DNA of 40,549 nt from Candidatus Moraniibacteriota bacterium (GTDB lineage Bacteria; Patescibacteriota; Minisyncoccia; Moranbacterales; UBA2206), in contig JBAXPY010000002.1 in assembly GCA_037132035.1 (NCBI GenBank), positions 1 to 40,549 of the forward strand. Direction: 5' to 3'. A model generated the notes under the pieces. That model was not told the origin of the DNA, did no database searches, and saw only the letters and a list, made by a program, of their open reading frames with translations. Shown piece after piece: positions 3,820 to 28,452 of the stretch. The position numbers and the translations under genes are program-made. The stretch's first letter is position 1. Each line of letters starts with the position of its first letter.

Positions 3820-3853
3820 TTATTAAATAATTATAAGTTTTTAAATTTAAAGT

Positions 3854-5711: not shown

Positions 5712-5786
5712 CAAATAAATTAATAATTTAAAAACAAAGCCATAAGAAGAACACCCTACAAAAGACCCGTTGTTAGAAAAGGGCCA

Positions 5787-9866: not shown

Positions 9867-10228
9867 GATTTTGAACCATCATTCCCTTCAAAATATTCTT
9901 GTGCAGCAACTTGCGCCAAATCTTCCATTCTTAAGTTTTCATCTTCTTTGTGCATACGAAATGCCATCAATATTATCTCTCTTGCTAACTCAGAAGAAAT
10001 CTCTTCAGCTCTCACTCCCTTAAGCTTAGCTAGGTGTTTTTTTATTTCTGGCTCAAAAACGATTTTAAAATTTAACATCTCCACAGCATTAGCATCCCCT
10101 CTTACTTCTACATCACTAAGCGGCTGCGTTTCAGAGTCATTCCTTTCCACGTTGTCTTCCCTGATACTATTAGCCGGCAACTCTTTTCCTAATGATTTTT
10201 CATATTCACCAAAGCGTAATTCCGCCAT
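9845..10228 (-). CDS. hypothetical acidic protein (127 aa)
   Basis: Coherent ORF whose 3' end overlaps the next gene's start by 22 nt, consistent with translational coupling. No recognisable family. Confidence 0.45.
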   Translation of the reverse strand: MAELRFGEYEKSLGKELPANSIREDNVERNDSETQPLSDVEVRGDANAVEMLNFKIVFEPEIKKHLAKLKGVRAEEISSELAREIILMAFRMHKEDENLRMEDLAQVAAQEYFEGNDGSKSWLLRGK

Positions 10229-10259
10229 ATTTTTTTGTCTTAATGATTACACCTCTATT

Positions 10260-11408: not shown

Positions 11409-11423
11409 ACTTAGTATATATCC

Positions 11424-11578
11424 CCTTCTCCCTCCGGGAGAAGGTGACCCCGCCGCGGCGGGGATGAGGGAAAAGGCTTAATGTTAGGCAAAAACTAAAT
11501 TGGCATAGATTATTCTTAATTTATAGCCCTTGCCCTCACCTGTCACGTGCTCGTGACATCCTCTCCCGGAGGGCGAGG
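11424..11578. repeat. cluster of GC-rich intergenic hairpins
   Basis: CCTTCTCCC/GGGAGAAGG (11424-11444). The 16-nt palindrome CCCCGCCGCGGCGGGG (11448-11463). TGTCACG-TGCT-CGTGACA (11541-11558). CCTCTCCC-GGA-GGGCGAGG (11560-11578). Confidence 0.7.
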
Positions 11579-11587
11579 AGGAAAAAA

Positions 11588-12601: not shown

Positions 12602-12611
12602 TTTGTTTTAT

Positions 12612-13550
12612 TTATTTTTTAACGTGTGAAACCAATAAAATTCCAATTGCAATAATGATAATGGCAAAAATTTTCTGCAAAATGGTTTTTAGGTCCTTTT
12701 TTTCTCGCATCACTTCTGGTACCCAGGCGGAAAAAAGAATACTGAGAATGAAAATGAAGACGTATTCCACTGAGACCAAGGCGCTCACGATAGTCACACT
12801 AGCCAGGGGTAGTGAGGTTGCGAACTCTTTGAGAAATGATCCGCTTCCACCCATAATTTTTGCAAGGACAAATGAAATGCCAGATTTCTGATTGTCCTTG
12901 TGGGGTTTTTTAAATTTCAAAAGTGACCCCAGGATTGCTCGGCGCCAAGTAGGAATCAGAAAAAAACTAAGCGTCCCCAAAAATGCCCCTGCACGGGTCC
13001 AGGCAAAAACATTCAGAAAATTATCATGAATATATAGCGATTTAATCATAATCGCCGAGAGGGCCAGAAAAAATCCCGCCAAAAGCGAAGCGCGAAAGCC
13101 TTTGAAGAATATGCGCTTCTCCAGCTTATCCAATTCAAAAGAAATGAGCAACCCACCAAGAATAAGTGTCCCAATACCGATAATTCCCCGCGCGCCCAAA
13201 CGTTCATGCAAAAATATGACGGCCAGAAAGAAAGTAACAATAGGAATGACTGCACCAACCACTGGAAGCACGCGACTGGCTTCGCCTTTCCTTATTGCAA
13301 AAAACAATGAGAGCATTCCGTAGATAAAAATCATTCCGGAGATGAGACTAAAAACCACCCTGCCTAAACTGATCAGATGAAAACCGCCAAAAAGAAGTCC
13401 GATAACTACTGCGAACAAGCCTAATGTTCCTGAATAAAATGCATAGATTACCGGATGAGAAACGCGCTTGGAAGAAAGTAAAAATTTATCCAGAATAATT
13501 TCCAGCGCCAAAAGAAAATATGCAACTATCGTTATGATTAGCCAATTCAT
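12612..13550 (-). CDS. DMT-superfamily (EamA-like) permease, about 10 TM
   Basis: Polytopic hydrophobic protein with two similar halves. Assignment is from overall pattern only. Confidence 0.55.
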   Translation of the reverse strand: MNWLIITIVAYFLLALEIILDKFLLSSKRVSHPVIYAFYSGTLGLFAVVIGLLFGGFHLISLGRVVFSLISGMIFIYGMLSLFFAIRKGEASRVLPVVGAVIPIVTFFLAVIFLHERLGARGIIGIGTLILGGLLISFELDKLEKRIFFKGFRASLLAGFFLALSAIMIKSLYIHDNFLNVFAWTRAGAFLGTLSFFLIPTWRRAILGSLLKFKKPHKDNQKSGISFVLAKIMGGSGSFLKEFATSLPLASVTIVSALVSVEYVFIFILSILFSAWVPEVMREKKDLKTILQKIFAIIIIAIGILLVSHVKK

Positions 13551-13617: not shown

Positions 13618-14439
13618 TTAAGAATTTACCTTTTTGTAATACAGCGCCACGTCCGCTATCCATTTGCGCACGCCTGCAGGATCATGCCCTGCGCAACTAG
13701 ACCCACACTTCCAGACAACCAGTTTTTCTGCTGTATTAATTTTTTTGTCCAATAGCTCTTTAATCCTTTCACCTACTACTAGGATTGCTTGTTCTGGAGA
13801 GTCAAAACAGCTATAACCAGAAGCGGTTTGATTATATGTCCCCCGATAACCCCAATAATTGAAACAATCATTCCCGCCTTTTTTTGGTGAGTGTTCACCC
13901 CAATCACTTTCTTTTTTGGCAATCGCAATCAGATAAGCTGCTGTTTCACTATCACACTTCACCAAGAAGGGAACCATTTTTTCCAGTGGGCTCCCTGCAA
14001 CTAATTCTTTGTATTTCAACTCTAAGCTACCTAGCGGTGCGCTTTCCGCAGCCGCTTTCTTTTTCTTTGCATCCCTCTCTTGGAGTTCCTTTTTCTCAGT
14101 TTTCCGAATTTGGTCAACGCCAGCTTTAACCTTCTCCATAGGATCAAACTTGAAAAGTTTTACTCTCGTTAAACTCGCTTGAATATCCCCCCCCAAAAAA
14201 GTAGTCTCCGCATTATCACTAAAAGAAACAGCTGTTAAGCTATTTTCTCCAAAATAGACTGAAAAAAACAGCACCAAGCATAGCACGGGCAATATTTTTG
14301 ACGATATATTTAGTTTTCCGATTCCTGTCTTACTCGCAATTTCCTTTTGCGGGCTCCCCACTTGGCGGCTATTCCGCTTTTGACAGAGTAGCGAGAAAAA
14401 CATCAGTTTTTCTCGCAATTTCGGCAGTTCTTCACTCAT
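13618..14439 (-). CDS. TM-anchored protein with Cys-rich lysozyme/glucosaminidase-like C-terminal domain (paralog A)
   Basis: TM helix ILPVLCLVLFFSVYF. The C-terminal domain reads AAYLIAIAKKESDWGEHSP...DCFNYWGYRG...CFDSPEQA...VVWKCGSSC...KWIADV. It is about 50% identical to the C-terminus of 27361-28452. Confidence 0.6.
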   Translation of the reverse strand: MSEELPKLREKLMFFSLLCQKRNSRQVGSPQKEIASKTGIGKLNISSKILPVLCLVLFFSVYFGENSLTAVSFSDNAETTFLGGDIQASLTRVKLFKFDPMEKVKAGVDQIRKTEKKELQERDAKKKKAAAESAPLGSLELKYKELVAGSPLEKMVPFLVKCDSETAAYLIAIAKKESDWGEHSPKKGGNDCFNYWGYRGTYNQTASGYSCFDSPEQAILVVGERIKELLDKKINTAEKLVVWKCGSSCAGHDPAGVRKWIADVALYYKKVNS

Positions 14440-14498: not shown

Positions 14499-14527
14499 AT
14501 TATAGCAAAAATTGAATTTTTGGTCAA
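14499..14527 (-). promoter_or_regulatory. near-consensus promoter for paralog A
   Basis: On the minus strand: TTGACC (14527-14522), 17 nt spacer, TGc, TATAAT (14504-14499). Confidence 0.6.
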
Positions 14528-14570: not shown

Positions 14571-17500
14571 CTATTTCTCTACACCGATCACCCAGTAATC
14601 AAAGGCGATGTCAAACTGCGCTGGCTTATCCAACTTTATCTTGAAACCAACATTATCAATTTTATCTGAAAGCACCCAATTCACCGGACTCGATCCAACT
14701 GGTGTAACAATAATCTTGGAGTCATACATCACTTTCTCATTTTTCACCAAGACCTCTTGCTGTCCAACTCGGATGATTACTGACCCCACATTATTTTTCA
14801 AAGGATCGGCGTTCTCACTAACCACATAATCCTCGGCTTTGACCTTCTTAGCTTTCACTTCCGTTGCCTCCAAATTACCAAGTCCCAAATTGACATTACC
14901 GCTAACATCTTTGTAAATCAGATTATTCATATTGAGCGCTAAGGCGAAATCAATCACAGCCTGACTTTGAGTCTGGACCAGGTCCAATTGATCCTGCAGC
15001 TTTTTCAGATTTTGGCTCAACTCACTCACACTGTCATCCATCTTTTTATTCGTCAGCGCCTGAATCTCCAACTTACCAAAAATATCTTTAAGTGCAGTTC
15101 CTTGATCAATATTATTTAAAAGATCCAAGTTTCCAGTATCAATTGCTTGAGCTAAAGGAACGTAGTTTGCCTTGGTTTCAACGCGAATATTTTTGAATTT
15201 AAGACTAGTGTTAGCTGATAGTTTAAAATAGGCTCTAAAATAATTCAAATGCTGCCAATCAATCTCTCCAGTCTTTGCGCCATCTGCGAGCGGTAATCTG
15301 ACCTGATTCCAACCGGAAAGGAAGAAGGGATGACTAGATCTGATCCATTCAATCTCTTTTTGATCTTGGATATTGCCAAGTTCAGTGTGAAAATCTTCGA
15401 GACTGGCGCTATCTTCAAGAAAAACATCATACACAAGATAGGATTGGTTTTGATCTTTGCCCGAGAGATCCAGCTGATTGGCGCTACCTAGATTAATAGC
15501 CAGCTCTTGAAAATTTTCAGGAGCATTATACTTAGCAGAAAATTGATTATTTTCAATCAATTGGTCAGTCAGAGATGAAGAAAGTTCACTGTTTGCATCT
15601 TTGAATTGATAGAACGGAAGCTCTTGGACTGGTTGACTATTTTGAGAGAGCAAGGCGTTGGCTGAACTTAGCTTGGTGCTGAGAAGATTAATCTGAGAGC
15701 CACTTGCCACGAGGTTAGTTTGGATGGAATTGATTTTTTGATTTGCAAGAGTGGTCTGATTTTGATTGTCTGTTTTGAGGAGAGCAAGTGCTTGATTCAG
15801 TTTTTGAATTTCATTATCTTGGCTATTATTTGAGTTTTGAAGAGCACTGGCAAGGATGGACAAGCTGGAGAGTTGAGTTTGCTGAGCTTTGACACCTTCA
15901 ATAAGAAGAGCGGAGAGATTGCCATAAGCGATACCATAACCATCCTTTTCGTTACCCACTACCACTTCGGGTAGGACTTTCAGCGTATCTTGAGCAATGA
16001 GACCAATTTGACGATCCGCGCCGGGATTAGACTTCCAATTGAAATAGACTCCACTGAGAGATTTGATTTTATCCAAGGGGTTAGTCACGTCCATGATGTT
16101 GGTTTTTAGTCTGGCGTCAGAAGAATGCGCCCAACCGCTAGTCGTGTACGTTCCCGTAGTGGAACCATTGTAGACGGCTAGTTTTTGGGTTGGGGTGGTG
16201 GTACCGATGCCAAGATTACCGGAAATATTAATCCGCATCGCTTCAGCCATAGCATTTGGAGCTGAACTCTTAGTGGATTGTAGAGCTACGCCTAGCTGAG
16301 ATTTAATATAACCACCACCAACATTTGTCCAAGACATATTTACGGTTGACGCTCCCGCTTTATAGGAAGTTGCTACTCCGTTACCATTATTTGCTCCGAC
16401 ATAGTTTATGAGAGTCTGACCAGAACCAACAGTAGGAGTTCCAATATCCTCAGCGCCCCCCACTACATCAATAACCATGTCATTTGTTGCTGCCGAAACA
16501 TTGGTTGAAATGCTACTCCCCCAGTTGTCAGCGACGCCACTCGTGATTCCGAAAGAATTGGTTTGATCAACGTTATAAAAGGTTTCGGCCACGGCTGACA
16601 TCTGACCGTTAGTTGAAGCGCTATGAATTGTCACATTATGCGTTCCAGTGTGAAGCTCTGAATCCTTCAGGTACCACAGCTGAACCAGCGCTGCGCTCCC
16701 TTTGCTATCTAGCAAGTGCATATCAACTCCGTCATATCGTACATACTCAATAGGGATACGCACGCTAGTAGCCACAATCAAAATTTTATTTGATTTTCCC
16801 GCATCAACGGCGTGAGAAATGGTAACAAGAACTCCCGAACCGTTGTAGCCATACGCGGAGCCAACACTGCTATTATCCAATGCAATTGGTTGCCATGACA
16901 ATCCTGGTGACGTTCTGAAAATCAAACTGCCAGAATTTCCCGTTCCTGTTCCAGCGGGCGTGTCAAGAAACATATTGGATCCAGAAATATTCGTTCCACT
17001 AGCCGCCGGGCCCTTGATATAAACATCACTTGGAGTCGCTGTGCCATTGCCAGAGCCGAAAAGAATATTTGAAGTAGCGACGTGCAGTCCAGCTTGCGGA
17101 CTAGTCGTGCCAATGCCAACATTTCCCAAAGTATAATAGATATCATTTCCTGTAGTTACCCACGAACTGCTACCTATACCACTGTCCGTCCAAGCTGTTT
17201 TGCAAACGCCAGCAATACACAACCCGGCAGCGGCGTTAATTTGTCCCAACACACCAGATCCTCTCACATCGACCTTGTAGGTTGGATTATTCGTGCCAAT
17301 ACCGATGTTGCCAGCCTTTAAATACATCGTATTGGCAACAGCTCCAGTTTCTTCACTAGTCAGAGCAGCGACTGAATTTTGGGTTAGGATAAAATTAGCA
17401 CCAGGAGTTAATCCAGTAATTCCCGTTAGAGCTTCAGCTCCTGATCCTCTGTTGATGGCATGCGCGGTTGTCCCGATATACATGGTTTGTCCGATAGGTG

Positions 17501-20500
17501 CGTAGTTGGCAATGGTCGCATAAGCTCCAGTGCCCAGTGCCCCACTAATAGTCACATTATCTTGAACTGTTAAAGTCTTGCCAGCGGCAATATTCAATGC
17601 ATTAGTTCCATTATTAGTGATTGCTAAACCATTGAATAATGGAGAAATGATAGATGTTCCAAAGTAGCCCGTTCTTGGTCTGGTGGCACCATTAGCTCCA
17701 ATATCCAAAGTGTTATCAGTAAAAAGCAAATTACCAGTCAAAGTTCCACCTCCAATAGGAAGATAGGCGCCAGAAGCTGTAAAAGCAGCACTACCTAGTG
17801 TCCCCCCGCCAGTTGGAATGGTTAAAGTAGTCCCAGCTGCTGGCCAAGTCAGTACTCCTGCCCCGCCGTTATTAGTGAAAGTCGTTGTAAAAGTAGCATT
17901 CGTGACTGTCCCAGCATTGCCCGTAACTGATCCGCTAATTGCATTAGTAACGGTAATATCAGTTGCCCAAAGTTTAGCTAGACGATTAGTGGTATCTCCA
18001 ATAGTTTGCGGAGTAGTTTGGCTTGTGAGTACTGCTCCGGCAAGAGAGGTAAGATAACCCATTCCGGTCCAAGGTGTGCCAGTTACATAGGTAGAGTTGT
18101 CATAAGAAATAGTAGTGCCGGCTATCTTAACAAAGCCTGTGCCATTGAGAGCATCTTGTTTACTAGTGGCTAGTCCGGAGTAAAGCGAGTTAGCGGAGTT
18201 GTCACCCGTATTTGTTCCTGAAACTGAAGCATCGAGAGGAACTGTGAGAGTTTTTGAGGTTGTTCCTCCGGCAATAGTGAAACCATTGGTAGCTGCGGTG
18301 AAGGTGAGAGCGTTGTATGTTCCGCCAGTGACATTGCCGGTTGAGTTGATTTGGAATTGAGAAGTGAAGCCAACGGAGAGCAGCGCAGTTGGGGAAGAAG
18401 TGCCAATTCCAACATTCCCTCCATCTTTAATCACAAATGCAGAAGCTCCAGCGTCTTTAAAATTGACGATATTGCCGGAGCCAGATTGGTTGATTGTGAG
18501 AGCATCGGAGGTTCCGTTATAGGCTGCATTAATTAAATTGCTAGAAGTGATACTACCGAGAAGATTAAGATTTCCTAATCCATTAACTTTAAATTTTTGA
18601 CTACCGCCAACTGCGACACCAAGAAGTGTATTACTTACAGCGCCGACTGAGCCGGTGTTTTCATAACCATAAGACTCTCCTGTCCACGTGCCAATCAACA
18701 AATCCTTATCCCCATCATCATCTAAATCAGCAAACGCTGGACGAGGTTTCACGGACCCGCCAACATTAGGAGTATCCCAAGAAGCCTTACGCGACCAGAT
18801 CAGAGAAAAGACGGTGCCAGTATTTTCATAGGCGTAAGATATTCCACCATATTCCCCGATTATTACGTCATAATCACCATCGCCATCCAGATCAGCTAAG
18901 GCAGGGCTAACGCCGTAACCAATATCTGGAGTATTCCAACCTGAGTTGGCCGTCCATGTTGGCAATAGAGTTGTGCCAGTGTTCCGATAGCCATAGGACA
19001 CACCGCTATCTGAACCAACCAACACATCTATCTTTCCGTCATTATCCAAATCAGCAAAAACGGGAGTGGCTGAATCTCCTATGTCAGGCAAATTCCAACC
19101 CGCCCTCGCCGTCCAAATTGGCGAAGAAATTGTTCCGGTATTTTCATAGGCGTAAGATACGCCATTATATCCACCAACCATCAAGTCATAGTCCCCATCG
19201 CCATCCAGATCAGCAAGGGCTGGCTTAACATAAGTAGAGGCACAGCCAATTATATTCCAATCTGATTTTGCAGAAAAACTTGGCGAAGAAATTATGCCAG
19301 TATTTTCATATCCATAAATGTTACTGCCAACACTAATCAGCAAATCAAAGTCACCATCATGGTCTAAATCAGCAAAAGCGGGAGAGCCCATATTACCACC
19401 AGGACTAGGCATATTCCAAGCCGATTTCGCCGTCCAACTCACAATAGGATTAGAACTATACGAAGCCGGATTAATATATAGCGAGCCATTAGAAACACCT
19501 CCTCCCATTGGAATACTTGAAAAAGTTCCCAGTCCCGCCACTTCAAATTTAGAAGTTGGCGCTGTTGTTCCGATTCCGATGTTTCCAGTATTACTACTAT
19601 ATATATCATTACCTGATGTGGTCCAAACGCTACTGCCAATTCCTGAATCAGTCCAAGCAGTTTTACAAATTCCATTAATGCACAGTCCCCCTTCGGCGTT
19701 GATTTGTCCGGCGGCGGCGATGCCTCGGACGTCTAGTTTATAACTTGCAGTAGTCGTTCCAATACCGATATTACCTAGCCCGGAGAAAGTTAGATTATTG
19801 GAAGCAAGAGCAATGTCTGTGGCAGCGGATAACGTACCGCCTAGTTTAAACGCATTGGCAGTTAATGTTAACCCATTTGTGGCAGTGTAACTTGTGCCAG
19901 ATTGTTGATCGAGTTGATATCTGGTTCCTGCGCTCGTGGCGGTAAAATATAAATGCGACCCATCAAATTCTACTGCTCCCCCTTCAGTGGCAGAGAGCAA
20001 GGTTCCGGTTGTAAATTTAAGTGGAGCTGTTCCGGCTGTGGCGGTACCAGCTTTGATGTTGAGTAATGCAGTTGGTGAGGTTGTGCCGATACCAACAAAG
20101 CCCCCGTCTTTGATCATGAAGGCAGAAGTTCCGGCATCTTTGAAATTGACGATGTTGCCGGCACCAGATTGGTTGATTGTGAGAGCGTCAGAGGTTCCAC
20201 TGTAAATTCCATTGATTAAATTATTAGCAGTAAAACTTCCGCTAAGAGTTAATTGACCAAGCCCATTAACTCTCAATTTTTCACTACCAGCCACTGCGAC
20301 ACCAAAAACAGTATTAGTAGCAGCACCAATAGAGCCAGTATTTTCATAAACACGAGTCACATAAGGAGAATATTCCCCGACCAATAAATCAGCGTCCCCA
20401 TCACTGTCTAGGTCAGCAAGAGCAGGAGCAACCCGCCCACCACTGCTATTTGGCGCATTCCAAGATGACTTCGCTGCCCAAACCGGAGAAGAAGCTGTGC

Positions 20501-23500
20501 CAGTATTTTCATAACCATAGGATATTCCATTAGAAGCATTACCAATCAACAAGTCAAAATCGCCATCACCATCTAGGTTAGCAAAAGTTGGATGAGCACG
20601 CGAACTCACGCTAGGTGTGTTCCAACCTGCTCTTGCTGTCCAAGTTGGAGAAGAAACTGTTCCAGTGTTCTCATACGCATAAGCGATACCATCAGACCTG
20701 CCAACTAACAAATCCGTTTTCCCATCATTATTTAAATCAGCAAAAGCAGGGACAGTTTCAGTAAAAATACCTGGCCCATTCCAGCCCGCCCTCGCTGTCC
20801 AAGCCGGAGAAGAAATTGTGCCAGTATTTTCATAAGCGAGAACACCACTACTATAAGATCCGACTAGCAAATCAAAATCACCATCATGATCCAAATCGGC
20901 CAAGGCAGGAGCACTGCGACCATCACCACCCGTAGGGCCATCCCAAGCTGGTTTAGCAGCCCAGCTTGGAGAAAAAGCTGTGCCAGTATTTTCATATGCA
21001 ACTACAGTTGTACTACCAGTACCTGCCAGCATATCCAAATCGCCATCACCATCCAGATCAGCGAAAACAGCATAAACATGACCGCTAATACTAGGTAGCC
21101 ACGCCGCTTTTGTCGTCCAACTAACCATCGGCGCTGAACTATAAGCGGCTGGATTAATATAGAGTGCTCCCTGCGAAACCCCCGTTCCAGTCGGAACACT
21201 GGTAAGTGTCGCTAGTCCTGCAATCTCAAGTTTCGAAACCGGAGTGGTTGTTCCAATGCCAATGTTTCCCGTATTACTACTATATATATCATTACCATTT
21301 GTGGTCCAAACGCTACTGCCAATTCCAGAATCAGTCCAAGCTGTTTTGCAAACTCCGGCAATACATAATCCTCCGGCAGCGTTGATTTGTCCGGCTGCGC
21401 CTGAGCCTTGAACATCTAGCTTGTAACTTGGTGTAGTCGTGCCAATCCCAAGATTTCCATTAAGTGTCAATCCTGCAAAAGTTGGACTGGATGTGGTGAG
21501 AAGACTTTGATTAATAGAAACGTTTGATCCACTGATGGTTAAGGTTCTTGCAGTTGTTCCGCCAAGAAGATTGAAGCCATCAGTCGCTGAAGTTAGCGTG
21601 AGACCATTATATGCACCTCCAAAAATACTACCAACGCCATTAACTCTAAATTTTTGAGAGCCTCCCACTGCAACACCAAAAAGTGTATTACTTGCAGCAC
21701 CAACCGAACCCGTGTTTTCATAGGCATACGACACGCCATTATACTCTCCAATCAACAAATCTTTATCTCCATCATTATCTAAATCAGCCAAAGCAGGAAT
21801 AACATAAGTTCCAATATCTGATACATTCCAGCTTGTTTTTGCAGCCCAAGTTGGCGCAAGAGTTGAGCCAGTGTTTTCATAGGCATTAGTAACGCCATTA
21901 TAATTTCCAATGAGTAAATCTAAATCACCATCACCATCTAAATCAGCAGCGACTGGCAAGGCATTAGCTCCAACGCTAGGAACATTCCAGCCTGATTGCG
22001 CTATCCAAACTGGCGCAAAAGTTGTGCCAGTATTTTTATAAGCATAAGTTAAGCCACCATTTTCACCAATTAATAGATCAATATCACCATCGCCATCTAA
22101 ATCAGCAAAGGCTGGAGCACAAGATGTTCCGATAGATGGCGTATTCCAACTTGGCTCCGCTGTCCAAACTGGCGTAGAAGTAATGCTAGTATTTTTATAG
22201 GCATAAGATACGCCCACATATGAACCAATCAATAAATCCACCTTTCCATCTCCATTCAAATCAGCAAATGCAGGTTTAGCGTAAGTACCAATATCAGGAC
22301 CATTCCAAGCCGACTTAGCCGACCAACTAGGCAACAAATTTGAACCAGTATTTTCATAGGCATAAGATATACCATCCATTGCACCAATTAATAGATCCAG
22401 ATCACCATCGCCATCCAAATCAGCAAAGGCTGGAGCAGCAAGCGTTCCAATATCAGGCGTGTTCCAGACAGATCTAGCCGTCCACTGCACAATCGGATTA
22501 GAACTATACGACGCCGGATTGATATACAGCGCACCCTGCGAAACCCCCGTCCCCGCCGGAATATTTGTGAGAGTCGCTAGCCCGGCAATCTCCAATTTTG
22601 AAACAGGCGTCGTTGTTCCAATTCCAATGTTTCCCGTGTTGTTGCTATAGATATCATTGCCACTTGTCGTCCAAACACTACTGCCAATTCCAGAATCAGT
22701 CCACGCAGTTTTACAAATTCCATTAATACACAATCCCCCCTCAGCATTAATTTGTCCGGCAGCTGCGGTGCCTCGAACATCGAGTTTGTAGCTAGCAGTA
22801 GTTGTGCCTATGCCGATATTACCTAGTCCGGAGAAAGTTAAATTATTAGAAGCAAGGGCAATATCCGTAGCTCTAGTTAGTGTACCACCCAACTCAAAAG
22901 CGGTGGAATTGAGGGTGAGACCGTTCGTGGCAGTGTAGGCCGTGCCAATGGCGGTGCTCCAAACGGGATTAGCGCCAATGCCTTGCGTTTTGAGAAAAGT
23001 GCCACTCGTGCCAGCAGTCAACACGGTCCAGTTAGTGCCATTGTAATACATAACATCACCTTGAGCGGGAGTGACACTGGCCATATCAGAATGGCTCGTT
23101 GAAAAAAGTTGGTGGGCTGAGCCAGGCGCAGTCGTCACCCAAGTGAAGCCTTGTGTGGCTGAGTTGTAAGTCAGAATATTACCATTTTGAGGATTAGTGC
23201 TACTTTCCAAGAGCATGCCTTCTATGATTTTGTTATTACCAATTGAAGTGATGCCAGCATTCGTAATGGCAATGTCACCGGTCATCGCTACACCAGCGGC
23301 AATATTTGAGGCATTACCAATAAAGAGACTGCCACTCGTTAGCAAGTTAGTCATTTTTCCGTTAAATGTATTCCAATCAGTATTTGATAGTGCGCCTGTA
23401 GAGGAAGTGGAAGCCAGAACCAAAGTAAACACCTGGGAGCCATCAACGGAGAGACCGTTGGCAGTCGCGTTGATTGTTGCTGGGTTATGACCAAAAGATG

Positions 23501-26500
23501 ACGTGGATGTATCACAGACTAGTCCCGATGCGGTGGAATAAACGCAGAGCTTCGTGTCAGTCATCGTGCCTTGTTTTAGGGAAAATTCTGTACCCGCTAA
23601 TTGGAGCAAATTACTAGCGGCCGCAGCATATGTTGTACCAGTCGCTGCTTGCCAAGCTGGATTAGCCCCTGCTCCATTCGTTCGCAGGAAGTTACCACTT
23701 GTGCCTGCCGTGAGAGCAGCCCATCTTGTGCCGTTGTAGTAGATCACATCCCCTTGGGCGGGAGTGATGCTGGCCATATCGGAATGAGAGGCAGAGAATA
23801 AATTATGGGCAGTGCCGGGAGCAGTCGCCACCCAAGCAAAACCACTGGTGGCGGAGTTGTAAGAAAGGATATTGCCATTGCTGGGAGTGGTCGTGCTTTC
23901 GTTTAACATGCTTTCCGTGATCTTGTTAGCACCAATACTGGTTACCCCCCCATTGGTGATGGCAATGTCTCCGGTCATCGTGATACTTGTGGCAATATTG
24001 GAAGCGTTACCAATGAAAAGATTTCCACTAGTAAGAGCGGGTGAAAGTTTACTGTTGAAAGTTTGCCAATCGGTATTATTCAGTGCTCCTGTTGTTGAGG
24101 TGGAAGCCAGTGCCAATGCTAGCTCTTGACCGTTTAGGGTTAGGCCGTTATTCGTCGCGTTAATAGTCATCGGGCTGTGACCAACGGTGGTACTGTCTGT
24201 ATTGCAAACTAAATTAGTGCCGTCATAACTGCAAATGCGTCCAGTGGTGAGCGTGCCTTCTTTCATGGAAAACGTGGTGCCAGATAATTGCAGGAGATTG
24301 CCACTCGCAGCATATGTTGTACCAGTCGCTGCTTGCCAAGCTGGATTAGCCCCTGCTCCATTCGTTCGCAGGAAGTTACCACTTGTGCCTGCCGTGAGAG
24401 CAGCCCATCTTGTGCCGTTGTAGTAGATCACATCCCCTTGGGCGGGAGTGATGCTGGCCATATCGGAATGAGAGGCAGAGAATAAATTATGGGCAGTGCC
24501 GGGAGCAGTCGCCACCCAAGCAAAACCACTGGTGGCGGAGTTGTAAGAAAGGATATTGCCATTGCTGGGAGTGGTCGTGCTTTCGTTTAACATGCTTTCC
24601 GTGATCTTGTTAGCACCAATACTGGTTACCCCCCCATTGGTGATGGCAATGTCTCCGGTCATCGTGATACTTGTGGCAATATTGGAAGCGTTACCAATGA
24701 AAAGATTTCCACTAGTAAGAGCGGGTGAAAGTTTACTGTTGAAAGTTTGCCAATCGGTATTATTCAGTGCTCCTGTTGTTGAGGTGGAAGAGAGCACAAG
24801 AGTAAGGACTTGTGAGCCATCGACTGAAAGACCATTGGCCGTAGCGCTTACAGTAATTGGAGTGTGTCCAACGGAAGCGGAAGTGGTATTGCAAACTAGT
24901 CCACTGGTTGTGGAATAGGTGCATAGTCTTGTGTCAGTCAGTGTGCCTTCTCTCAAGGAAAAAGCACTGCCAGTTAATTGGAGGAGATTGCCACTGGCGG
25001 TGTAAGTCGTGCCAGTCGCAGCTTGCCAAGTTGGATTATTCCCTGTTCCGTTTGTTCGCAGGAGATAGCCGTTCGTGCCAGCTGCGAGCGTGGTCCAGTT
25101 TGTGCCATTGTAATAGATGAAGTCCCCTTGGGATGGAGTGATGCTGGCCATATCCAAATGACTGGAAGAAAAAAGATTGTGTGATAGTCCAGGGACAGTT
25201 GGCACCCAAGCAAAACCATTCGTCGCTGAGTTGTAGGCCAAAATATTGCCATTGGCAGGAGTATTTGTGCTTTCGCGTAACATGCTTTCGGTAATTTTAT
25301 CCGCCCCGATTGAAGTTACTCCGGCGTTGGTGGTTGTGACGTCTCCGCTCATCGCAACACCCGTGGCAATATTGGAAGCATTACCGATGAAAAGTCTGCC
25401 ACTAGTGAGAGCGGGTGAAAGTTTGCTGTTAAATGTTTGCCAGTCAGTATTACTTAGTGCTCCTGTTGTAGAAGTTGAGGCTAGGGCGATAGCTAGTTCT
25501 TGACCATTTAGAGCTAGACCATTATTCGTCGCGTTGATGGTGAGTGGGCTGTGGCCAACTGAGACACTGTCCGTATCACAGACTAGGCCACTAATGGTGG
25601 AATAGGTACAAATTCGACCGTTAGTGAGCAGCCCTTCTTTGACTGAAAAAGTGCTGCCCGCTAATTGCAGTAGCGTGCCAGATCTTGTGTAGGTCGTACC
25701 AGTCGCCACTTGCCAAGTCGGATTACTATTAGCACCGTTCGTTCGCAGAAAATTACCACTCGTGCCAGCACTGAGGGCAGTCCAGTTGGTGCCGTTGTAA
25801 TAGATAACGTCTCCTTGAGCGGGAGCGATGTTGGCTGTGTCGGAATGAGCACTAGAGAAAAGATTGTGATTGGTGCCAGCTGGAGCACTCCAGGTGCCGT
25901 CCCCTCTTAGGTATTGCGCAGTAGTACCAGCAGATACGGGAAGATTGTAGGCGCCATTAATATTAAGCGCGCTGACTCTAGTTGCGCCAGTCACTTCCAA
26001 TTTGTAGCTAGGACTAGTAGTGCCAATTCCAATGTTTGTGCCATCATTGTAAAGGACACTGCTGGCAGACCAACCCAAAGAAGTGTGATAGTTAAGTGTT
26101 TGTCCCGTTGTGCCAGTCGGGAGAGTGCCACCGCCACCGCCGAGCATCGTATTACCCCAATAAAGATTACCGCTATTGCTGTAGAGACGATTGGTGGAAG
26201 TTGTGGGCACGGAACTGTCAGCCAGATAGAGGCGGTCTTTAACATCGAGACTAGTCACGTTGATTGTATCTTTGAGCGAAATGGAAACGGAACTGCTAGT
26301 CGTGACCACATTAACATTCCCCGCCCCCAAAATGGAACCAAAAGCATAGCCGGATCCATTACCCATGAGCACCTTGCCATTTTCTGGATTAGTGGTGAGT
26401 CCGGTACCTCCTTGATTTACGGGAAGAGTACCTTGAGTATCGGTACTGAATTTAATTTTGTTAGCGGTTAGTTTTTGATTGGAGAGAGTGAGATATTTTG

Positions 26501-27113
26501 CTCCAGAAAGGGTGAGGGAATCGTTTAGTCTTGAGTCATTGCCCGTGATTAACTGTCCTGCGCCTGTGCCAATGGGAAGATTTTGGATGTCAATCTTTCC
26601 GGTGTTGTTGAGAGAGACGATGTCGCCTGACTGGGTTCCAATCTTTTTGCCATCCAAAAGGGAGGCATTGGTGGCGTTGTAGGCAAAGAGAGTGGAAGTG
26701 ATTCTTTTTCTGGGGACCAGTTCACTATCTTGATTAATCCTGATTCCTAGATAGAATTGATTGTTTTCATTATTGGTTAGGATAGGCAGCTCTTGAGTTT
26801 GCCCAAGATTGAATTTAAGAATACCATTTTTGATGGTGACGGCTTGAGTTTCTTCCCAAACTCTTCGTTCTTTATCTGCGTCAGAAGGATATCTGTCAAT
26901 TGTTGTTCTGTTTTGAGAATAGAGCGCGAAGCGTACGGTGTAATCCCCATTGATCATTTGGCCGGTTTTGTCGGTGACAAAAGCCACCCCTTCCATTTGT
27001 CTGGCGGCCTCCACTTTGAGAAAAGGGCAAAGAGTAAAAAAGACAAAACAAAACAGAAAAATGGCTACATTTTTCTTGTATTTTTTTTCACTTTTCTCTT
27101 TCGAAAATATCAT
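14571..27113 (-). CDS. giant (4180 aa) secreted/anchored tail-fibre-like repeat protein with FG-GAP/VCBS blocks and an S74 chaperone domain
   Basis: Single uninterrupted ORF. It has an N-terminal signal/anchor. Recurrent GN[IV]GIGTT[ST]P.YKL.V.G, LPVNQGGTG and YLPIGGGTLTGNL motifs appear. There are fifteen DLDGDGD.DLL[IV]G repeats. SSDARLKTNI...IGLIAQD...LPEVV is also present. Confidence 0.9.
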   Translation of the reverse strand: MIFSKEKSEKKYKKNVAIFLFCFVFFTLCPFLKVEAARQMEGVAFVTDKTGQMINGDYTVRFALYSQNRTTIDRYPSDADKERRVWEETQAVTIKNGILKFNLGQTQELPILTNNENNQFYLGIRINQDSELVPRKRITSTLFAYNATNASLLDGKKIGTQSGDIVSLNNTGKIDIQNLPIGTGAGQLITGNDSRLNDSLTLSGAKYLTLSNQKLTANKIKFSTDTQGTLPVNQGGTGLTTNPENGKVLMGNGSGYAFGSILGAGNVNVVTTSSSVSISLKDTINVTSLDVKDRLYLADSSVPTTSTNRLYSNSGNLYWGNTMLGGGGGTLPTGTTGQTLNYHTSLGWSASSVLYNDGTNIGIGTTSPSYKLEVTGATRVSALNINGAYNLPVSAGTTAQYLRGDGTWSAPAGTNHNLFSSAHSDTANIAPAQGDVIYYNGTNWTALSAGTSGNFLRTNGANSNPTWQVATGTTYTRSGTLLQLAGSTFSVKEGLLTNGRICTYSTISGLVCDTDSVSVGHSPLTINATNNGLALNGQELAIALASTSTTGALSNTDWQTFNSKLSPALTSGRLFIGNASNIATGVAMSGDVTTTNAGVTSIGADKITESMLRESTNTPANGNILAYNSATNGFAWVPTVPGLSHNLFSSSHLDMASITPSQGDFIYYNGTNWTTLAAGTNGYLLRTNGTGNNPTWQAATGTTYTASGNLLQLTGSAFSLREGTLTDTRLCTYSTTSGLVCNTTSASVGHTPITVSATANGLSVDGSQVLTLVLSSTSTTGALNNTDWQTFNSKLSPALTSGNLFIGNASNIATSITMTGDIAITNGGVTSIGANKITESMLNESTTTPSNGNILSYNSATSGFAWVATAPGTAHNLFSASHSDMASITPAQGDVIYYNGTRWAALTAGTSGNFLRTNGAGANPAWQAATGTTYAASGNLLQLSGTTFSMKEGTLTTGRICSYDGTNLVCNTDSTTVGHSPMTINATNNGLTLNGQELALALASTSTTGALNNTDWQTFNSKLSPALTSGNLFIGNASNIATSITMTGDIAITNGGVTSIGANKITESMLNESTTTPSNGNILSYNSATSGFAWVATAPGTAHNLFSASHSDMASITPAQGDVIYYNGTRWAALTAGTSGNFLRTNGAGANPAWQAATGTTYAAAASNLLQLAGTEFSLKQGTMTDTKLCVYSTASGLVCDTSTSSFGHNPATINATANGLSVDGSQVFTLVLASTSSTGALSNTDWNTFNGKMTNLLTSGSLFIGNASNIAAGVAMTGDIAITNAGITSIGNNKIIEGMLLESSTNPQNGNILTYNSATQGFTWVTTAPGSAHQLFSTSHSDMASVTPAQGDVMYYNGTNWTVLTAGTSGTFLKTQGIGANPVWSTAIGTAYTATNGLTLNSTAFELGGTLTRATDIALASNNLTFSGLGNIGIGTTTASYKLDVRGTAAAGQINAEGGLCINGICKTAWTDSGIGSSVWTTSGNDIYSNNTGNIGIGTTTPVSKLEIAGLATLTNIPAGTGVSQGALYINPASYSSNPIVQWTARSVWNTPDIGTLAAPAFADLDGDGDLDLLIGAMDGISYAYENTGSNLLPSWSAKSAWNGPDIGTYAKPAFADLNGDGKVDLLIGSYVGVSYAYKNTSITSTPVWTAEPSWNTPSIGTSCAPAFADLDGDGDIDLLIGENGGLTYAYKNTGTTFAPVWIAQSGWNVPSVGANALPVAADLDGDGDLDLLIGNYNGVTNAYENTGSTLAPTWAAKTSWNVSDIGTYVIPALADLDNDGDKDLLIGEYNGVSYAYENTGSVGAASNTLFGVAVGGSQKFRVNGVGSIFGGAYNGLTLTSATDGFNLLGGTTARTLTISGSNVSINQSLLTTSSPTFAGLTLNGNLGIGTTTPSYKLDVQGSGAAGQINAAGGLCIAGVCKTAWTDSGIGSSVWTTNGNDIYSSNTGNIGIGTTTPVSKLEIAGLATLTSVPTGTGVSQGALYINPAAYSSAPMVSWTTKAAWLPSISGHVYAVFADLDGDGDLDMLAGTGSTTVVAYENTGTAFSPSWAAKPAWDGPTGGDGRSAPALADLDHDGDFDLLVGSYSSGVLAYENTGTISSPAWTARAGWNGPGIFTETVPAFADLNNDGKTDLLVGRSDGIAYAYENTGTVSSPTWTARAGWNTPSVSSRAHPTFANLDGDGDFDLLIGNASNGISYGYENTGTASSPVWAAKSSWNAPNSSGGRVAPALADLDSDGDADLLVGEYSPYVTRVYENTGSIGAATNTVFGVAVAGSEKLRVNGLGQLTLSGSFTANNLINGIYSGTSDALTINQSGAGNIVNFKDAGTSAFMIKDGGFVGIGTTSPTALLNIKAGTATAGTAPLKFTTGTLLSATEGGAVEFDGSHLYFTATSAGTRYQLDQQSGTSYTATNGLTLTANAFKLGGTLSAATDIALASNNLTFSGLGNIGIGTTTASYKLDVRGIAAAGQINAEGGLCINGICKTAWTDSGIGSSVWTTSGNDIYSSNTGNIGIGTTAPTSKFEVAGLGTFSSIPMGGGVSNGSLYINPASYSSNPIVSWTAKSAWNMPSPGGNMGSPAFADLDHDGDFDLLISVGSNIYGYENTGIISSPSFSAKSDWNIIGCASTYVKPALADLDGDGDYDLMVGGYNGVSYAYENTGTISSPIWTARAGWNLPDIGDSATPVFADLDNDGKIDVLVGSDSGVSYGYRNTGTTLLPTWTANSGWNTPDIGYGVSPALADLDGDGDYDVIIGEYGGISYAYENTGTVFSLIWSRKASWDTPNVGGSVKPRPAFADLDDDGDKDLLIGTWTGESYGYENTGSVGAVSNTLLGVAVGGSQKFKVNGLGNLNLLGSITSSNLINAAYNGTSDALTINQSGSGNIVNFKDAGASAFVIKDGGNVGIGTSSPTALLSVGFTSQFQINSTGNVTGGTYNALTFTAATNGFTIAGGTTSKTLTVPLDASVSGTNTGDNSANSLYSGLATSKQDALNGTGFVKIAGTTISYDNSTYVTGTPWTGMGYLTSLAGAVLTSQTTPQTIGDTTNRLAKLWATDITVTNAISGSVTGNAGTVTNATFTTTFTNNGGAGVLTWPAAGTTLTIPTGGGTLGSAAFTASGAYLPIGGGTLTGNLLFTDNTLDIGANGATRPRTGYFGTSIISPLFNGLAITNNGTNALNIAAGKTLTVQDNVTISGALGTGAYATIANYAPIGQTMYIGTTAHAINRGSGAEALTGITGLTPGANFILTQNSVAALTSEETGAVANTMYLKAGNIGIGTNNPTYKVDVRGSGVLGQINAAAGLCIAGVCKTAWTDSGIGSSSWVTTGNDIYYTLGNVGIGTTSPQAGLHVATSNILFGSGNGTATPSDVYIKGPAASGTNISGSNMFLDTPAGTGTGNSGSLIFRTSPGLSWQPIALDNSSVGSAYGYNGSGVLVTISHAVDAGKSNKILIVATSVRIPIEYVRYDGVDMHLLDSKGSAALVQLWYLKDSELHTGTHNVTIHSASTNGQMSAVAETFYNVDQTNSFGITSGVADNWGSSISTNVSAATNDMVIDVVGGAEDIGTPTVGSGQTLINYVGANNGNGVATSYKAGASTVNMSWTNVGGGYIKSQLGVALQSTKSSAPNAMAEAMRINISGNLGIGTTTPTQKLAVYNGSTTGTYTTSGWAHSSDARLKTNIMDVTNPLDKIKSLSGVYFNWKSNPGADRQIGLIAQDTLKVLPEVVVGNEKDGYGIAYGNLSALLIEGVKAQQTQLSSLSILASALQNSNNSQDNEIQKLNQALALLKTDNQNQTTLANQKINSIQTNLVASGSQINLLSTKLSSANALLSQNSQPVQELPFYQFKDANSELSSSLTDQLIENNQFSAKYNAPENFQELAINLGSANQLDLSGKDQNQSYLVYDVFLEDSASLEDFHTELGNIQDQKEIEWIRSSHPFFLSGWNQVRLPLADGAKTGEIDWQHLNYFRAYFKLSANTSLKFKNIRVETKANYVPLAQAIDTGNLDLLNNIDQGTALKDIFGKLEIQALTNKKMDDSVSELSQNLKKLQDQLDLVQTQSQAVIDFALALNMNNLIYKDVSGNVNLGLGNLEATEVKAKKVKAEDYVVSENADPLKNNVGSVIIRVGQQEVLVKNEKVMYDSKIIVTPVGSSPVNWVLSDKIDNVGFKIKLDKPAQFDIAFDYWVIGVEK
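15789..16124 (-). other. peptidase S74 / endosialidase intramolecular chaperone domain (aa ~3664-3775)
   Basis: SSDARLKTNIMDVTNPLDKIKSLSGVYFNWKSNPGADRQIGLIAQDTLKVLPEVVVGNEKDGYGIAYGNLSALLIEGVKAQQ matches the PF13884 pattern (SD.R.K.NI ... G.IAQ[ED] ... PE.V ... Y..L..LLIE). Confidence 0.75.
18651..19400 (-). repeat. FG-GAP/VCBS block 3 (5 repeats)
   Basis: DLDHDGDFDLLIS, DLDGDGDYDLMVG, DLDNDGKIDVLVG, DLDGDGDYDVIIG and DLDDDGDKDLLIG. Each is followed by ..Y[AG]YENTG. Confidence 0.8.
20331..21100 (-). repeat. FG-GAP/VCBS block 2 (5 repeats)
   Basis: DLDGDGDLDMLAG, DLDHDGDFDLLVG, DLNNDGKTDLLVG, NLDGDGDFDLLIG and DLDSDGDADLLVG. Confidence 0.8.
21711..22485 (-). repeat. FG-GAP/VCBS block 1 (5 repeats)
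   Basis: DLDGDGDLDLLIG, DLNGDGKVDLLIG, DLDGDGDIDLLIG, DLDGDGDLDLLIG and DLDNDGDKDLLIG. Confidence 0.8.
22913..25873 (-). repeat. in-frame tandem array, about 4.3 copies of a 228-231-aa unit
   Basis: Units begin at conserved H416, H645, H875, H1103 and H1334 ([NSA]H[NQ]LFS..H[SL]D....[ITV][AT]P[AS]QGD.[IM]YYNGT.W). The nucleotide period is 684-693 bp. Confidence 0.9.
23622..24790 (-). repeat. 485-bp perfect direct repeat (23622-24106 = 24306-24790)
   Basis: Base-by-base comparison of the two stretches shows identity at an offset of 684 nt. Identical spurious antisense ORFs in the track confirm it. Confidence 0.9.
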
Positions 27114-27208: not shown

Positions 27209-27235
27209 ATTATAGCATGGAAAGGGGAAAGGCAA
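27209..27235 (-). promoter_or_regulatory. extended -10 promoter for the giant gene
   Basis: On the minus strand: TTGCCT (27235-27230), 15 nt spacer, TGc, TATAAT (27214-27209). It lies about 95 nt upstream of ATG 27113. Confidence 0.5.
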
Positions 27236-27360: not shown

Positions 27361-28452
27361 CTATTTTTCTAAATTGAATTTTTTAACATAAAAACCAACA
27401 TCATCAATCCATTTGTTGGCTGCCGCTTGACCGCCCGTAACGGAACAATTTGATCCACATTTCCAGACAACCATCTTAGCTGGAGTATCAAGTTTTTTTT
27501 CTGATATCAAATATTCCATTCTTTTCGCTACGACGTCAACAGCATCCTTCGGACTATCAAAACAAGTATGTCCACCCGTACCCATTCTCTCTCTTTTTCC
27601 CCGATAACCCCAGTAATTATAGCAGTCCTCCCCGTTTAAAACTGGAACGTGCACGCCCCAAGAGCTTTCTTTCCTGGCAATTCCAATCAAGAATGCAGCT
27701 ACAGTCCGATTCCTTTTGGCGATTTCCGGCACCATTTGTTTGATTGGGTAATCCTTGACCATTTCCATTATTTCCTTCTCAAAATCTGATTGCTTAGTAT
27801 TAGCTTCTTCAATCAAAAGCCTCGCGATGTATTCATCATCTGCCATTTTTTCCGCTTCCTTCATAGCCGCTTCTTCTCCCAGCACCCTCTGCGCTTCTTG
27901 CTCTTGAACAATCTGCTCTGTCCCAGCCTTGTCTTTAGCCTCTTGTATCTTAGCTTGCGCGCCTGGACCCAAATAACGATAAATCATCGTCATCAAAAAC
28001 ATTCCAAAAATCAAAGACCCAATAAGGGATACATTCCACATTCGCACCATGCTCACGCCATGAGTATAGCCTGTAAGTGCATCTTTAAAGTATGAATAGA
28101 AGTTAGAATATCTATCTTGAATTTCATCATACATCCACGCTTCTTTTTTCCGAGAATAGGTATGATATATATTTTGTTCTCGTCGTGCTGCAACACCATC
28201 AATCCTTCCCGTGATAAATTCAACTCGCTCCCCACGCCTCAGCCGCAAAAGATCTTCTTGACTAAAATACAATTTAGAATCACAAGTAGTGAAATCTTTT
28301 ACCTTTCCATATTTCTGAGAAAGTAACACGGAAGAATTTTTATGCTTCAAAACAAATTTAGCCAAGGCATAGTCTAATTCTACCGGTTTTTTTTGTTTTT
28401 TTTGTATTCCATCTAGCATTGTTTCAGTATAGCACATTTTTTTCTTTCGCAA
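27361..28452 (-). CDS. TM-anchored protein with Cys-rich lysozyme/glucosaminidase-like C-terminal domain (paralog B)
   Basis: TM helix VSLIGSLIFGMFLMTMIY and a coiled, acidic linker. The C-terminal domain reads AAFLIGIARKESSWGVHVP...DCYNYWGYRG...CFDSPKDA...VVWKCGSNC...KWIDDV. The start is uncertain (28452, 28437 or 28419), and the upstream end overlaps lgt. Confidence 0.6.
   Translation of the reverse strand: MRKKKMCYTETMLDGIQKKQKKPVELDYALAKFVLKHKNSSVLLSQKYGKVKDFTTCDSKLYFSQEDLLRLRRGERVEFITGRIDGVAARREQNIYHTYSRKKEAWMYDEIQDRYSNFYSYFKDALTGYTHGVSMVRMWNVSLIGSLIFGMFLMTMIYRYLGPGAQAKIQEAKDKAGTEQIVQEQEAQRVLGEEAAMKEAEKMADDEYIARLLIEEANTKQSDFEKEIMEMVKDYPIKQMVPEIAKRNRTVAAFLIGIARKESSWGVHVPVLNGEDCYNYWGYRGKRERMGTGGHTCFDSPKDAVDVVAKRMEYLISEKKLDTPAKMVVWKCGSNCSVTGGQAAANKWIDDVGFYVKKFNLEK

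Follow-up and report, generated by a model that had tools for sequence, protein, structure and literature searches.

How ultrasmall bacteria in the Candidate Phyla Radiation (CPR, or Patescibacteria) recognize and hold their hosts has been worked out only in small part; Saccharibacteria alone have type IV pili and some adhesins described for this purpose. The question bears on a 40,549-nucleotide stretch of contig JBAXPY010000002.1 (assembly GCA_037132035.1), hereafter the window, in which a single open reading frame (ORF) on the minus strand encodes a protein of 4180 residues, hereafter the giant protein. A preliminary description of this DNA, made from the sequence alone, had proposed a secreted fiber of tail-fiber-like parts and FG-GAP blocks, as a candidate for host or partner attachment. 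The structural part of that proposal is well founded, by the Pfam domain inventory and by motif counts. The reading that we consider most probable, with moderate confidence, is that the giant protein is a secreted, probably homotrimeric and very long surface fiber of an uncultured Moranbacteria bacterium, of the MAT type defined in Bdellovibrio (Caulton et al. 2024; PMC10769870), that attaches the cell to a host or partner; as a host-attachment fiber it is plausible.

The frame is open throughout and runs without interruption over its 4180 codons, as first described (Table 1). The N-terminus reads MIFSKEKSEKKYKKN-VAIFLFCFVFFTLCPFL-KVEA/A, the slash marking the predicted cut, and was assigned by eye as a Sec-type signal peptide that would be cut by signal peptidase I; its features are kept in the orthologs. 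The N-terminus had been introduced as a signal or anchor. Its signal character stands, and a lipobox does not, because the Cys of 'TLCP' is unconserved among orthologs ('SLFS' in its place), so that lipoprotein anchoring was rejected. Similarly, the extended -10 element described as the gene's own promoter (TGcTATAAT) is present, but a consensus scan found no full -35/-10 pair at 27209-27217, which it missed because the -35 spacing is 15 nt. Between aa 200 and 3400, Gly, Thr, Ser, Ala and Asn make up 55-62% of the residues and Lys, Arg and Glu 3-7%, the compositional bias noticed at the outset. This Gly/Thr/Ser/Ala-rich composition accounts for the raised G+C of the gene, as seen at second codon positions (0.51); G+C at third codon positions (GC3) is 0.38, the same as in neighboring genes, and therefore gives no sign of recent import. 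An NCBIfam search of the giant protein gave no match.

A signal peptide and a conserved beta-rich N-domain of ~130 aa characterize MAT fibers, together with a trimeric shaft of beta-helix that bears capping loops and with an S74 domain (SDxxxK) or another tip domain (PMC10769870). The giant protein likewise has a signal peptide, an N-domain of ~130 aa and a capping-loop shaft. Local jackhmmer found the N-domain (aa 37-165) in 22 of 120 S74 proteins among the matches listed, and a 23-sequence profile of it was aligned by hhalign with an S74 protein of Bdellovibrio svalbardensis (residues 23-159; probability 96.5%, E 8.7e-10) and with one of Bacteriovoracaceae (probability 97.4%, E 1.1e-11). The aligned regions of both Bdellovibrionota proteins directly follow their signal peptides. 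PF26696, carried by many Bacteroidota S74 proteins, was also considered and set aside, as by inspection it appears to be another N-terminal head and not the MAT N-domain. No Pfam match to a YadA anchor or head, features of trimeric autotransporters, was found in the giant protein; some of its relatives carry PF05658.

Along the shaft, the GIGTT-type capping loops that had been noted as numerous amount to 11 copies of G[NLF][IVL]GIGT[TSN]. Their register, I-G-I-G-T-T-x-P-x-x-K-L, is off by one residue from the published MAT consensus V-G-G/N-pi-x-x-P-x-x-x-L. The tandem 229-aa unit, estimated earlier at 4.3 copies, was counted as 4.4 (aa 407-1413) with 62-90% identity by tile-wise self-BLAST; its tblastn matches, to the tail fiber of P-SSP7 and to proteins of pelagiphages, are weak (E 1e-4 to 5e-4) and span 35-60 aa. 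Two further motifs had been read as typical of phage fibers. Both are present, LPVNQGGTG once (aa 230-238) and YLPIGGGTLTGNL once (aa 3117-3129), but the phage connection found no support in tblastn searches of the proximal (NQGGTG) and distal (PIGGGTLTG) shaft segments, which had no match among 50,697 phage records.

The C-terminal 859 aa, used as a query, recovered 693 proteins, nearly all with S74; several are named 'tail fiber domain-containing protein', two of them from Moranbacteria. In the giant protein itself, Peptidase_S74 (PF13884) is matched at aa 3665-3718 with an E-value of 6.4e-17 (62 bits against a cut-off of 22), and the segment matches a PHROG family of long tail fiber distal subunits. 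The SDxxxK dyad is intact, and S, D, R, L and K are each at least 90% conserved in an alignment with 13 relatives. Around S74, phmmer found the Bdellovibrio protein Bd2133 in the PDB (8OND, E 2.6e-5), with three capping loops aligned, followed by a phage long tail fiber (6F45, 0.0057), MyRF (7DC3, 0.015) and Bd2439 (8OL4, 0.019). Because of the N-domain profile, the PDB matches of the capping loops and S74, and the catalytic motif, the giant protein is best classified from its sequence as a MAT-type S74 fiber. The earlier inventory of domains, with fiber repeats, FG-GAP blocks and the S74 chaperone, is borne out.

Three blocks of FG-GAP/VCBS repeats interrupt this shaft. Pfam matches are strong (FG-GAP_3, E 2.4e-59; FG-GAP, E 1.7e-42), the motif Y[EKR]NT[GS] occurs 15 times, and 14 DxDxDG loops and one NLDGDGD bring the Ca-type pattern D/N-x-D-x-D-G to 15 of 15 repeats, the number given in the preliminary description. 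Its comparison with integrin propellers is supported at the level of the repeat. Integrin alpha closes one propeller with seven repeats, whereas the giant protein has three separate blocks of exactly five 53-aa repeats each. Cys-loop modules of the form GLCI[NA]G[IV]CKTAWTDSGIGSS number four, as reported, and tile-wise self-BLAST identified a Cys-loop module with its FG-GAP block as a repeated supermodule.

A domain of about 220 aa near aa 3380-3600 had been left unassigned. It exists, at aa 3408-3627, and can now be assigned. A word-indexed search with it found nothing, despite the presence of the domain in the relative P0001. An exhaustive search with HMMER then recovered 440 representative proteins (E<=1e-3), which shows that it is no orphan. 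These relatives have one to three copies within long fibers or are stand-alone proteins of ~220 aa, the latter matching PHROG 553 and 2106, annotated 'minor tail protein'. The AlphaFold2 (AF2) model, built from a 24-sequence alignment, is all-beta (pLDDT 93.4, pTM 0.90) and resembles predicted structures of minor tail proteins of actinophages and uncultured phages in BFVD (TM 0.7-0.83, E down to 1e-13). Sequence identity to these fold-sharing proteins is 12-26% only. Against the PDB, neither sequence profile nor Foldseek gave anything convincing (best TM 0.23), and tblastn against the phage collection gave no match. On the basis of the models, the domain is confidently predicted to be a beta-sandwich of the phage minor tail protein type. 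Because it lies between two capping-loop segments, like the FG-GAP blocks, it is read as a lateral knob near the distal end and not as the very tip.

Downstream of S74, the protein continues with coiled coil and C-terminal domains, as had been described, although the length that follows the cleavage Ser is 516 aa and not ~400 aa. The AF2 model of aa 3641-4180 (13 sequences) has a mean pLDDT of 64.6. At aa ~3830-3980 it has a confident beta-sandwich (pLDDT 83-95), which long helices separate from a small beta domain (aa 4109-4176, pLDDT 63-84). Foldseek against the PDB placed the sandwich with carbohydrate-binding modules (CBM) of families CBM30, CBM11, CBM4 and CBM16 (E 1.3e-7 to 1e-4, target TM 0.55-0.64, identity 9-15%). 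The jelly-roll fold thus resembles that of solved CBMs, but membership in a CBM sequence family was not found, as Pfam gave no match over this domain or the terminal beta domain, and for the CBM-like domain none even at E<=10. P0001-P0005 and P0009 keep the extension in full. The terminal domain has homologs in P0003-P0005, P0009, P0011-P0013, P0052 and P0062, and in P0011-P0013, P0052 and P0062 it is the only part of the extension that is kept.

Comparison of these relatives reveals that modules are exchanged by recombination. P0001, from another metagenome, is ~100% identical over aa 3196-3684, after which identity drops to 58-72% (aa 3763-4013) and, for the terminal domain, to 28-38%. The pattern is opposite in P0003, where an unrelated LamG-type distal domain takes the place of the knob and the terminal domain is 72-79% identical. 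The breakpoint indicated by these opposite patterns is sharp and falls at the S74 domain, between aa 3684 and 3763 (window ~15825-16064).

From these parts, a mechanism can be proposed. The signal peptide would direct Sec export, and the N-domain (aa 37-165) would hold the fiber to the surface of the producer. The shaft would be built of capping-loop beta-helix segments and 229-aa units, with four lateral excursions per chain, namely the three FG-GAP Ca-type blocks and the distal beta-sandwich, as likely ligand-binding knobs. As an intramolecular chaperone, S74 would nucleate the folding of the trimer, starting at its C-terminal side, and would cleave before Ser3665 to release a 516-aa fragment (chaperone, coiled coils, CBM-like domain and small beta domain) from a mature fiber of ~3630 aa. 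Self-cleavage of S74 has been demonstrated for Bd3182, whose 781-aa mature form was modeled at 550 Å (PMC10769870). Scaled from that model after subtraction of ~1070 aa of knobs, the fiber would measure, as a rough estimate, ~180 nm (range 150-200). Its role would be to attach the producer to a host or partner by binding either that cell itself or glycans on its surface.

Table 1. Features of the giant fiber gene and its product, with positions in the window and residue numbers of the 4180-aa protein.
Feature	Position	Strand	Remarks
Giant MAT-type S74 fiber gene (predicted)	14571..27113	-	Complete ORF, 4180 aa + stop
Extended -10 TGcTATAAT (putative)	27209..27217	-	~95 nt upstream of ATG; read from sequence
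Signal peptide, aa 1-36	27006..27113	-	K-rich n-region, 17-residue hydrophobic core, VEA/A
N-terminal beta-rich domain, aa 37-165 (MAT-type proximal/anchoring)	26619..27005	-	Local jackhmmer, hhalign
Proximal shaft, aa 166-406	25896..26618	-	Holds LPVNQGGTG and first GIGTTSP capping loop
4.4 tandem 229-aa shaft units, aa 407-1413	22875..25895	-	Each with two-Cys loop and weak CBM_5_12-like motif
Span bounded by two identical 485-nt copies	23622..24790	-	Copies 23622-24106 and 24306-24790, inside 229-aa units
Capping-loop / Cys-loop module 1, aa 1414-1534	22512..22874	-	
FG-GAP block 1, aa 1535-1810	21684..22511	-	Five 53-aa repeats, DxDxDG Ca-type loops
Linker + Cys-loop module 2, aa 1811-1998	21120..21683	-	
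FG-GAP block 2, aa 1999-2262	20328..21119	-	Five repeats
Shaft spacer, aa 2263-2405	19899..20327	-	IKAGTATAGTAPLKF... motif common to Bacteroidota-type S74 protein P0065
Cys-loop module 3, aa 2406-2550	19464..19898	-	92% identical to module 1 over ~110 aa
FG-GAP block 3, aa 2551-2823	18645..19463	-	Five repeats
Distal shaft, aa 2824-3260	17334..18644	-	Contains YLPIGGGTLTGNL
Cys-loop module 4, aa 3261-3346	17076..17333	-	
Distal beta-sandwich knob (predicted), aa 3408-3627	16233..16892	-	HMMER, AF2, BFVD
Last capping loop (aa 3641-3664) + S74 chaperone/protease domain (aa 3665-3780)	15774..16193	-	Motif S3665-D-A-R-L-K3670
CBM-like jelly-roll beta-sandwich, aa 3830-3980	15174..15626	-	Downstream of S74; AF2, Foldseek
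Small C-terminal beta domain, aa 4109-4180	14574..14789	-	Preceded by coiled coil, aa 3981-4108

The genomic setting is that of a bacterial chromosome. The nearest named relatives of the D-Ala-D-Ala ligase (Ddl) encoded in the window are from Candidatus Moraniibacteriota (91% and 79% identity), followed by Parcubacteria and Patescibacteria. This places the host organism, on protein similarity, in Candidatus Moranbacteria within the CPR and bears out the earlier suspicion of a CPR-type bacterium. Further genes of the window encode tmRNA, EF-P, SSB, Lgt, Mur ligases, a YkuD L,D-transpeptidase and an EamA transporter. No phage genes were found within the 40.5 kb, and the context of the giant gene is chromosomal and not that of a prophage. 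A search for synteny, suggested at the outset, found the ends of orthologous genes in the same gene order. Contigs of a relative with a 95%-identical Ddl share the gene order of the window; the start of the gene is 93% identical over 613 aa in contig L006 and over 536 aa in L008, and L001, a contig of a GTDB genome, begins within the gene, is 92% identical to aa 3763-4180 and has identical downstream synteny. Both gene ends are under strong purifying selection, as indicated by a dN/dS of 0.036/0.578 = 0.06 over the N-terminal 613 codons and of 0.038/0.359 = 0.10 over the C-terminal 418 codons, which include the post-S74 part. A metagenome scan with a mid-gene query found no full-length ortholog, the best segment having 74% identity.

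Some of the evidence weighs against the favored reading. BLASTP and a 4-sequence profile gave no significant link of the N-domain to Bdellovibrio; the link comes from comparing the 23-sequence profile with proteins of two Bdellovibrionota members instead of the MATs described for strain HD100. The FG-GAP blocks depart, as described, from the canonical seven-bladed integrin-type propeller, and the copy number of the central repeats may be an assembly product. An S74 chaperone is expected to end the precursor, with ~100-150 aa after the Ser, whereas here 516 aa follow the catalytic Ser, compared with a median of 116 aa in 116 S74 homologs. The extension is under purifying selection. P0009 (1504 aa, from a Logan assembly) shares both the N-domain and the post-S74 extension, but Pfam finds no S74 in the region before the extension; the segment at that position may be a non-proteolytic chaperone variant. 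Because of the long extension, its selection and P0009, a mere disposable chaperone fits uneasily. The extension could instead be the working distal end of the molecule, or a second working part: S74 may not cleave in this subfamily, or the 516-aa trimer may stay bound or be released as a lectin or cap, or else, as in MyRF, form the tether from which cleavage frees the rest. This reversed polarity would agree with the confident CBM-like fold inside the tail, with the conservation of the extension in relatives, partly in P0011-P0013, P0052 and P0062, with the exchange of the terminal domain by recombination, as in an adhesin tip, and with the presence of MyRF among the PDB matches. We consider it unlikely all the same, as the SDxxxK dyad is intact and highly conserved, all S74 domains tested so far self-cleave (PMC10769870), and the CBM-like assignment is at fold level only (9-15% identity, target TM ~0.6). 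A bolder proposal, to which we give still less credence, is that S74 in this CPR subfamily is a built-in switch between two functional halves and not a throw-away folding aid. Cleavage at Ser3665 would then part a ~3630-aa fiber, each trimer of which bears 12 lateral knobs, from a conserved, trimeric and lectin-like module of 516 aa that consists of the coiled coil, the CBM-like jelly roll and the exchangeable terminal domain. This module would act alone, either as a cap that covers the tip before contact is made, or as a lectin that is released and marks the host, or as another tether. If true, the logic of MyRF would have a counterpart in bacteria, and episymbionts a new way of engaging their hosts.

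Other alternatives concern the assembly, the origin and the target of the fiber. The gene is real, and the number of 229-aa units, conceivably also that of the supermodules, is provisional, because the array contains an exact 485-nt direct repeat with a spacing of 684 nt and the two contigs of the close relative that were read as DNA break in this repeat region, after aa 536 (L008) and aa 613 (L006), that is, in the first or second 229-aa unit. The identical copies reflect either recent gene conversion or assembly uncertainty. That repeats were collapsed, expanded or mis-joined, so that the number or order of the 229-aa units and possibly the three FG-GAP supermodules are wrong, is a serious possibility, if not the one we expect. 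It is favored additionally by the 74-92% identity of the supermodules over hundreds of nucleotides, by a third contig, of 86.8 kb, that ends with a called 711-aa product in the repeat region (known from annotation only), by the start of L001 within the gene and by an exact-sequence look-up of the 4180-aa protein, which found no record elsewhere. However, the reading frame is open across all repeats, repeat spacings are in frame (684, 687, 690 and 693 nt), outside the 485-nt pair the copies diverge by 10-38%, enough for an assembler to resolve, and both gene ends are independently confirmed. As for origin, a tail-fiber gene of a phage or tailocin, in a prophage or a recent viral insertion, could explain the PHROG long tail fiber match of S74, the minor-tail-protein fold of the knob and the weak podovirus tail fiber matches of the 229-aa unit. 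This explanation is nevertheless extremely improbable: the 40.5 kb are free of phage genes, the gene is flanked by those for Lgt, Mur ligases, Ddl, YkuD, EamA, tmRNA and EF-P, several relatives have the same synteny, the protein has a Sec signal peptide, its N-domain is common to cellular fibers, and P0013, of the same N-domain/FG-GAP/S74 architecture, lies among cellular genes. The readings as a prophage or as a product of horizontal gene transfer were rejected on gene context and GC3. Finally, the fiber may be aimed at the producer itself or at non-host targets, in cell-cell cohesion or a matrix, in attachment to particles or polysaccharides, or as a phage decoy. FG-GAP/VCBS repeats and CBM-like folds are common among generic bacterial adhesins. 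Some neighboring genes act on the envelope or on glycans (YkuD, a GH5/42-like enzyme), and the lineage has no known host. We nonetheless regard this alternative as very unlikely: every cultivated member of Patescibacteria is reported to be an episymbiont (PMC12206443), MAT homologs of Bdellovibrio act on prey (PMC10769870), and the tip-type mosaicism is typical of host-range determinants. If the giant protein were only a generic adhesin, it would be an ordinary though very large member of the annotated 'tail fiber domain-containing protein' family.

Among known systems, the S74 subgroup of Bdellovibrio bacteriovorus MATs (e.g. Bd3182) offers the same order of signal peptide, N-domain, capping-loop shaft and SDxxxK S74 domain. 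Both are mosaic, with exchangeable distal modules, and the 'tip swapping' proposed for MATs is the same as the module exchange seen here. The giant protein is, however, ~4 times longer (4180 vs ~1000 aa) and, unlike the Bdellovibrio MATs, has three internal FG-GAP blocks and a minor-tail-type knob and continues ~400 aa past the S74 chaperone; it is made by a monoderm-like CPR bacterium instead of a diderm predator. Phage S74 fibers, such as the K1F endosialidase, the T5 L-shaped tail fiber pb1 and S16 gp37, share a C-terminal Ser-Lys chaperone after a triple beta-helix with GxGTxxP loops. They are virion components, whereas the giant protein appears to be cellular and Sec-exported and has the long post-S74 extension, and most of its shaft has no detectable phage homolog. 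MyRF is a eukaryotic membrane-bound transcription factor in which S74-type cleavage separates two parts. Its ICA/S74 domain is, like that of the giant protein, internal and followed by a long C-terminal region, and its cleavage yields two functional pieces; since the giant protein has no transmembrane segment after S74, the likeness is architectural only. A precedent within the CPR is the predator Vampirococcus lugosii, whose membrane or surface proteins reach 4163 aa, carry integrin, PKD and fibronectin-type domains and have been proposed to form a fibrous host-contact layer (PMC8080830). No S74 or tail-fiber relationship was reported for them, they belong to another phylum (Absconditabacteria), and they are likened here to the giant protein by description.

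Two uncharacterized bacterial proteins have the same N-domain, capping loops, FG-GAP insertion between shaft segments and S74, namely P0013, of 1488 aa with seven FG-GAP repeats, and P0027, of 938 aa with three. P0013 also shares the small C-terminal domain and has a chromosomal context, with BipA and DnaJ as neighbors. The two differ from the giant protein in having one FG-GAP block instead of three, in being shorter by a factor of 3-4 and in lacking 229-aa units, Cys-loop modules and a CBM-like domain. The metagenome scan also brought to light a complete S74 fiber of 3673 aa (L031:5522-16540), a 3738-aa ORF that combines LVIVD beta-propeller repeats with an autoproteolytic domain, Peptidase_G2 IMC (L051:7874-19087), and an ORF of >4351 aa that runs off both ends of its contig and has 31 capping loops (L034). 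The statement that no characterized protein has this combination is therefore not supported as worded, as the MAT scaffold is characterized in Bdellovibrio (PMC10769870), P0013 and P0027 combine N-domain, FG-GAP and S74, and an S74 fiber of >3000 aa exists (L031). Judging from these sequences, neither the FG-GAP and S74 combination nor the giant size is unique. What sets this locus apart is the threefold FG-GAP supermodule with five repeats each, the array of 229-aa units, the knob of minor-tail type and, most of all, the long extension that is conserved after S74, which points to an unstudied class of internal, not terminal, S74 domains.

The giant protein is thus an oversized, elaborated variant of MAT/S74 cellular fibers, in a lineage for which the literature searched has no discussion of them. 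As far as the accessible text goes, the MAT paper and its supplements list examples from Micavibrio, Uabimicrobium and Omnitrophica and do not mention Patescibacteria (PMC10769870), and no paper pairing S74 or 'tail fiber domain-containing' with Patescibacteria terms was found in the literature searched. The locus suggests that Moranbacteria use a tail-fiber-derived, tip-swapping fiber system like that of Bdellovibrio on prey, scaled up and with several kinds of knob. If this is true, the distal knob, the FG-GAP blocks and the CBM-like module would provide handles for host prediction and pull-downs, and the MAT family would extend to a third lifestyle.

The giant gene is flanked by two paralogous genes, at 27361-28452 (-; 363 aa) and 13618-14439 (-; 273 aa), whose products share a 131-aa Cys-rich C-terminal domain behind a hydrophobic segment (48% identity, E 4e-41). 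Searches with them gave no significant family or PDB match. Both match Glucosaminidase PF01832 weakly, below the Pfam threshold (E 0.14 and 0.02), which hints at membrane-anchored peptidoglycan hydrolases. The upstream paralog is also present in relatives (352 aa). Downstream of the giant gene, a terminator-like site was looked for and not detected. The 131 nt that separate it from the next gene hold a near-consensus promoter at 14499-14527 (-; TTGACC-17-TATAAT with an upstream TG, 11/12 matches), and the downstream paralog is therefore probably transcribed alone. Farther downstream, a run of envelope-related genes at 8985-13550 (-) encodes a C39-like peptidase, a YkuD L,D-transpeptidase with Big_5, a GH5/GH42-like glycosidase and an EamA transporter, and its order is kept in L001. 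The tmRNA gene at 5284-5714 (+) was identified by ARAGORN and Rfam (RF00023, 148.9 bits), with the tag peptide ANLLTKAKTAIANAFTVNFATALA; an ORF that overlaps it (5529-5984, -) is probably spurious. The gene at 8035-8703 (-) encodes a stand-alone 222-aa protein with a PolB-type 3'-5' exonuclease / RNase H-like domain (PF10108, E 4.8e-22).

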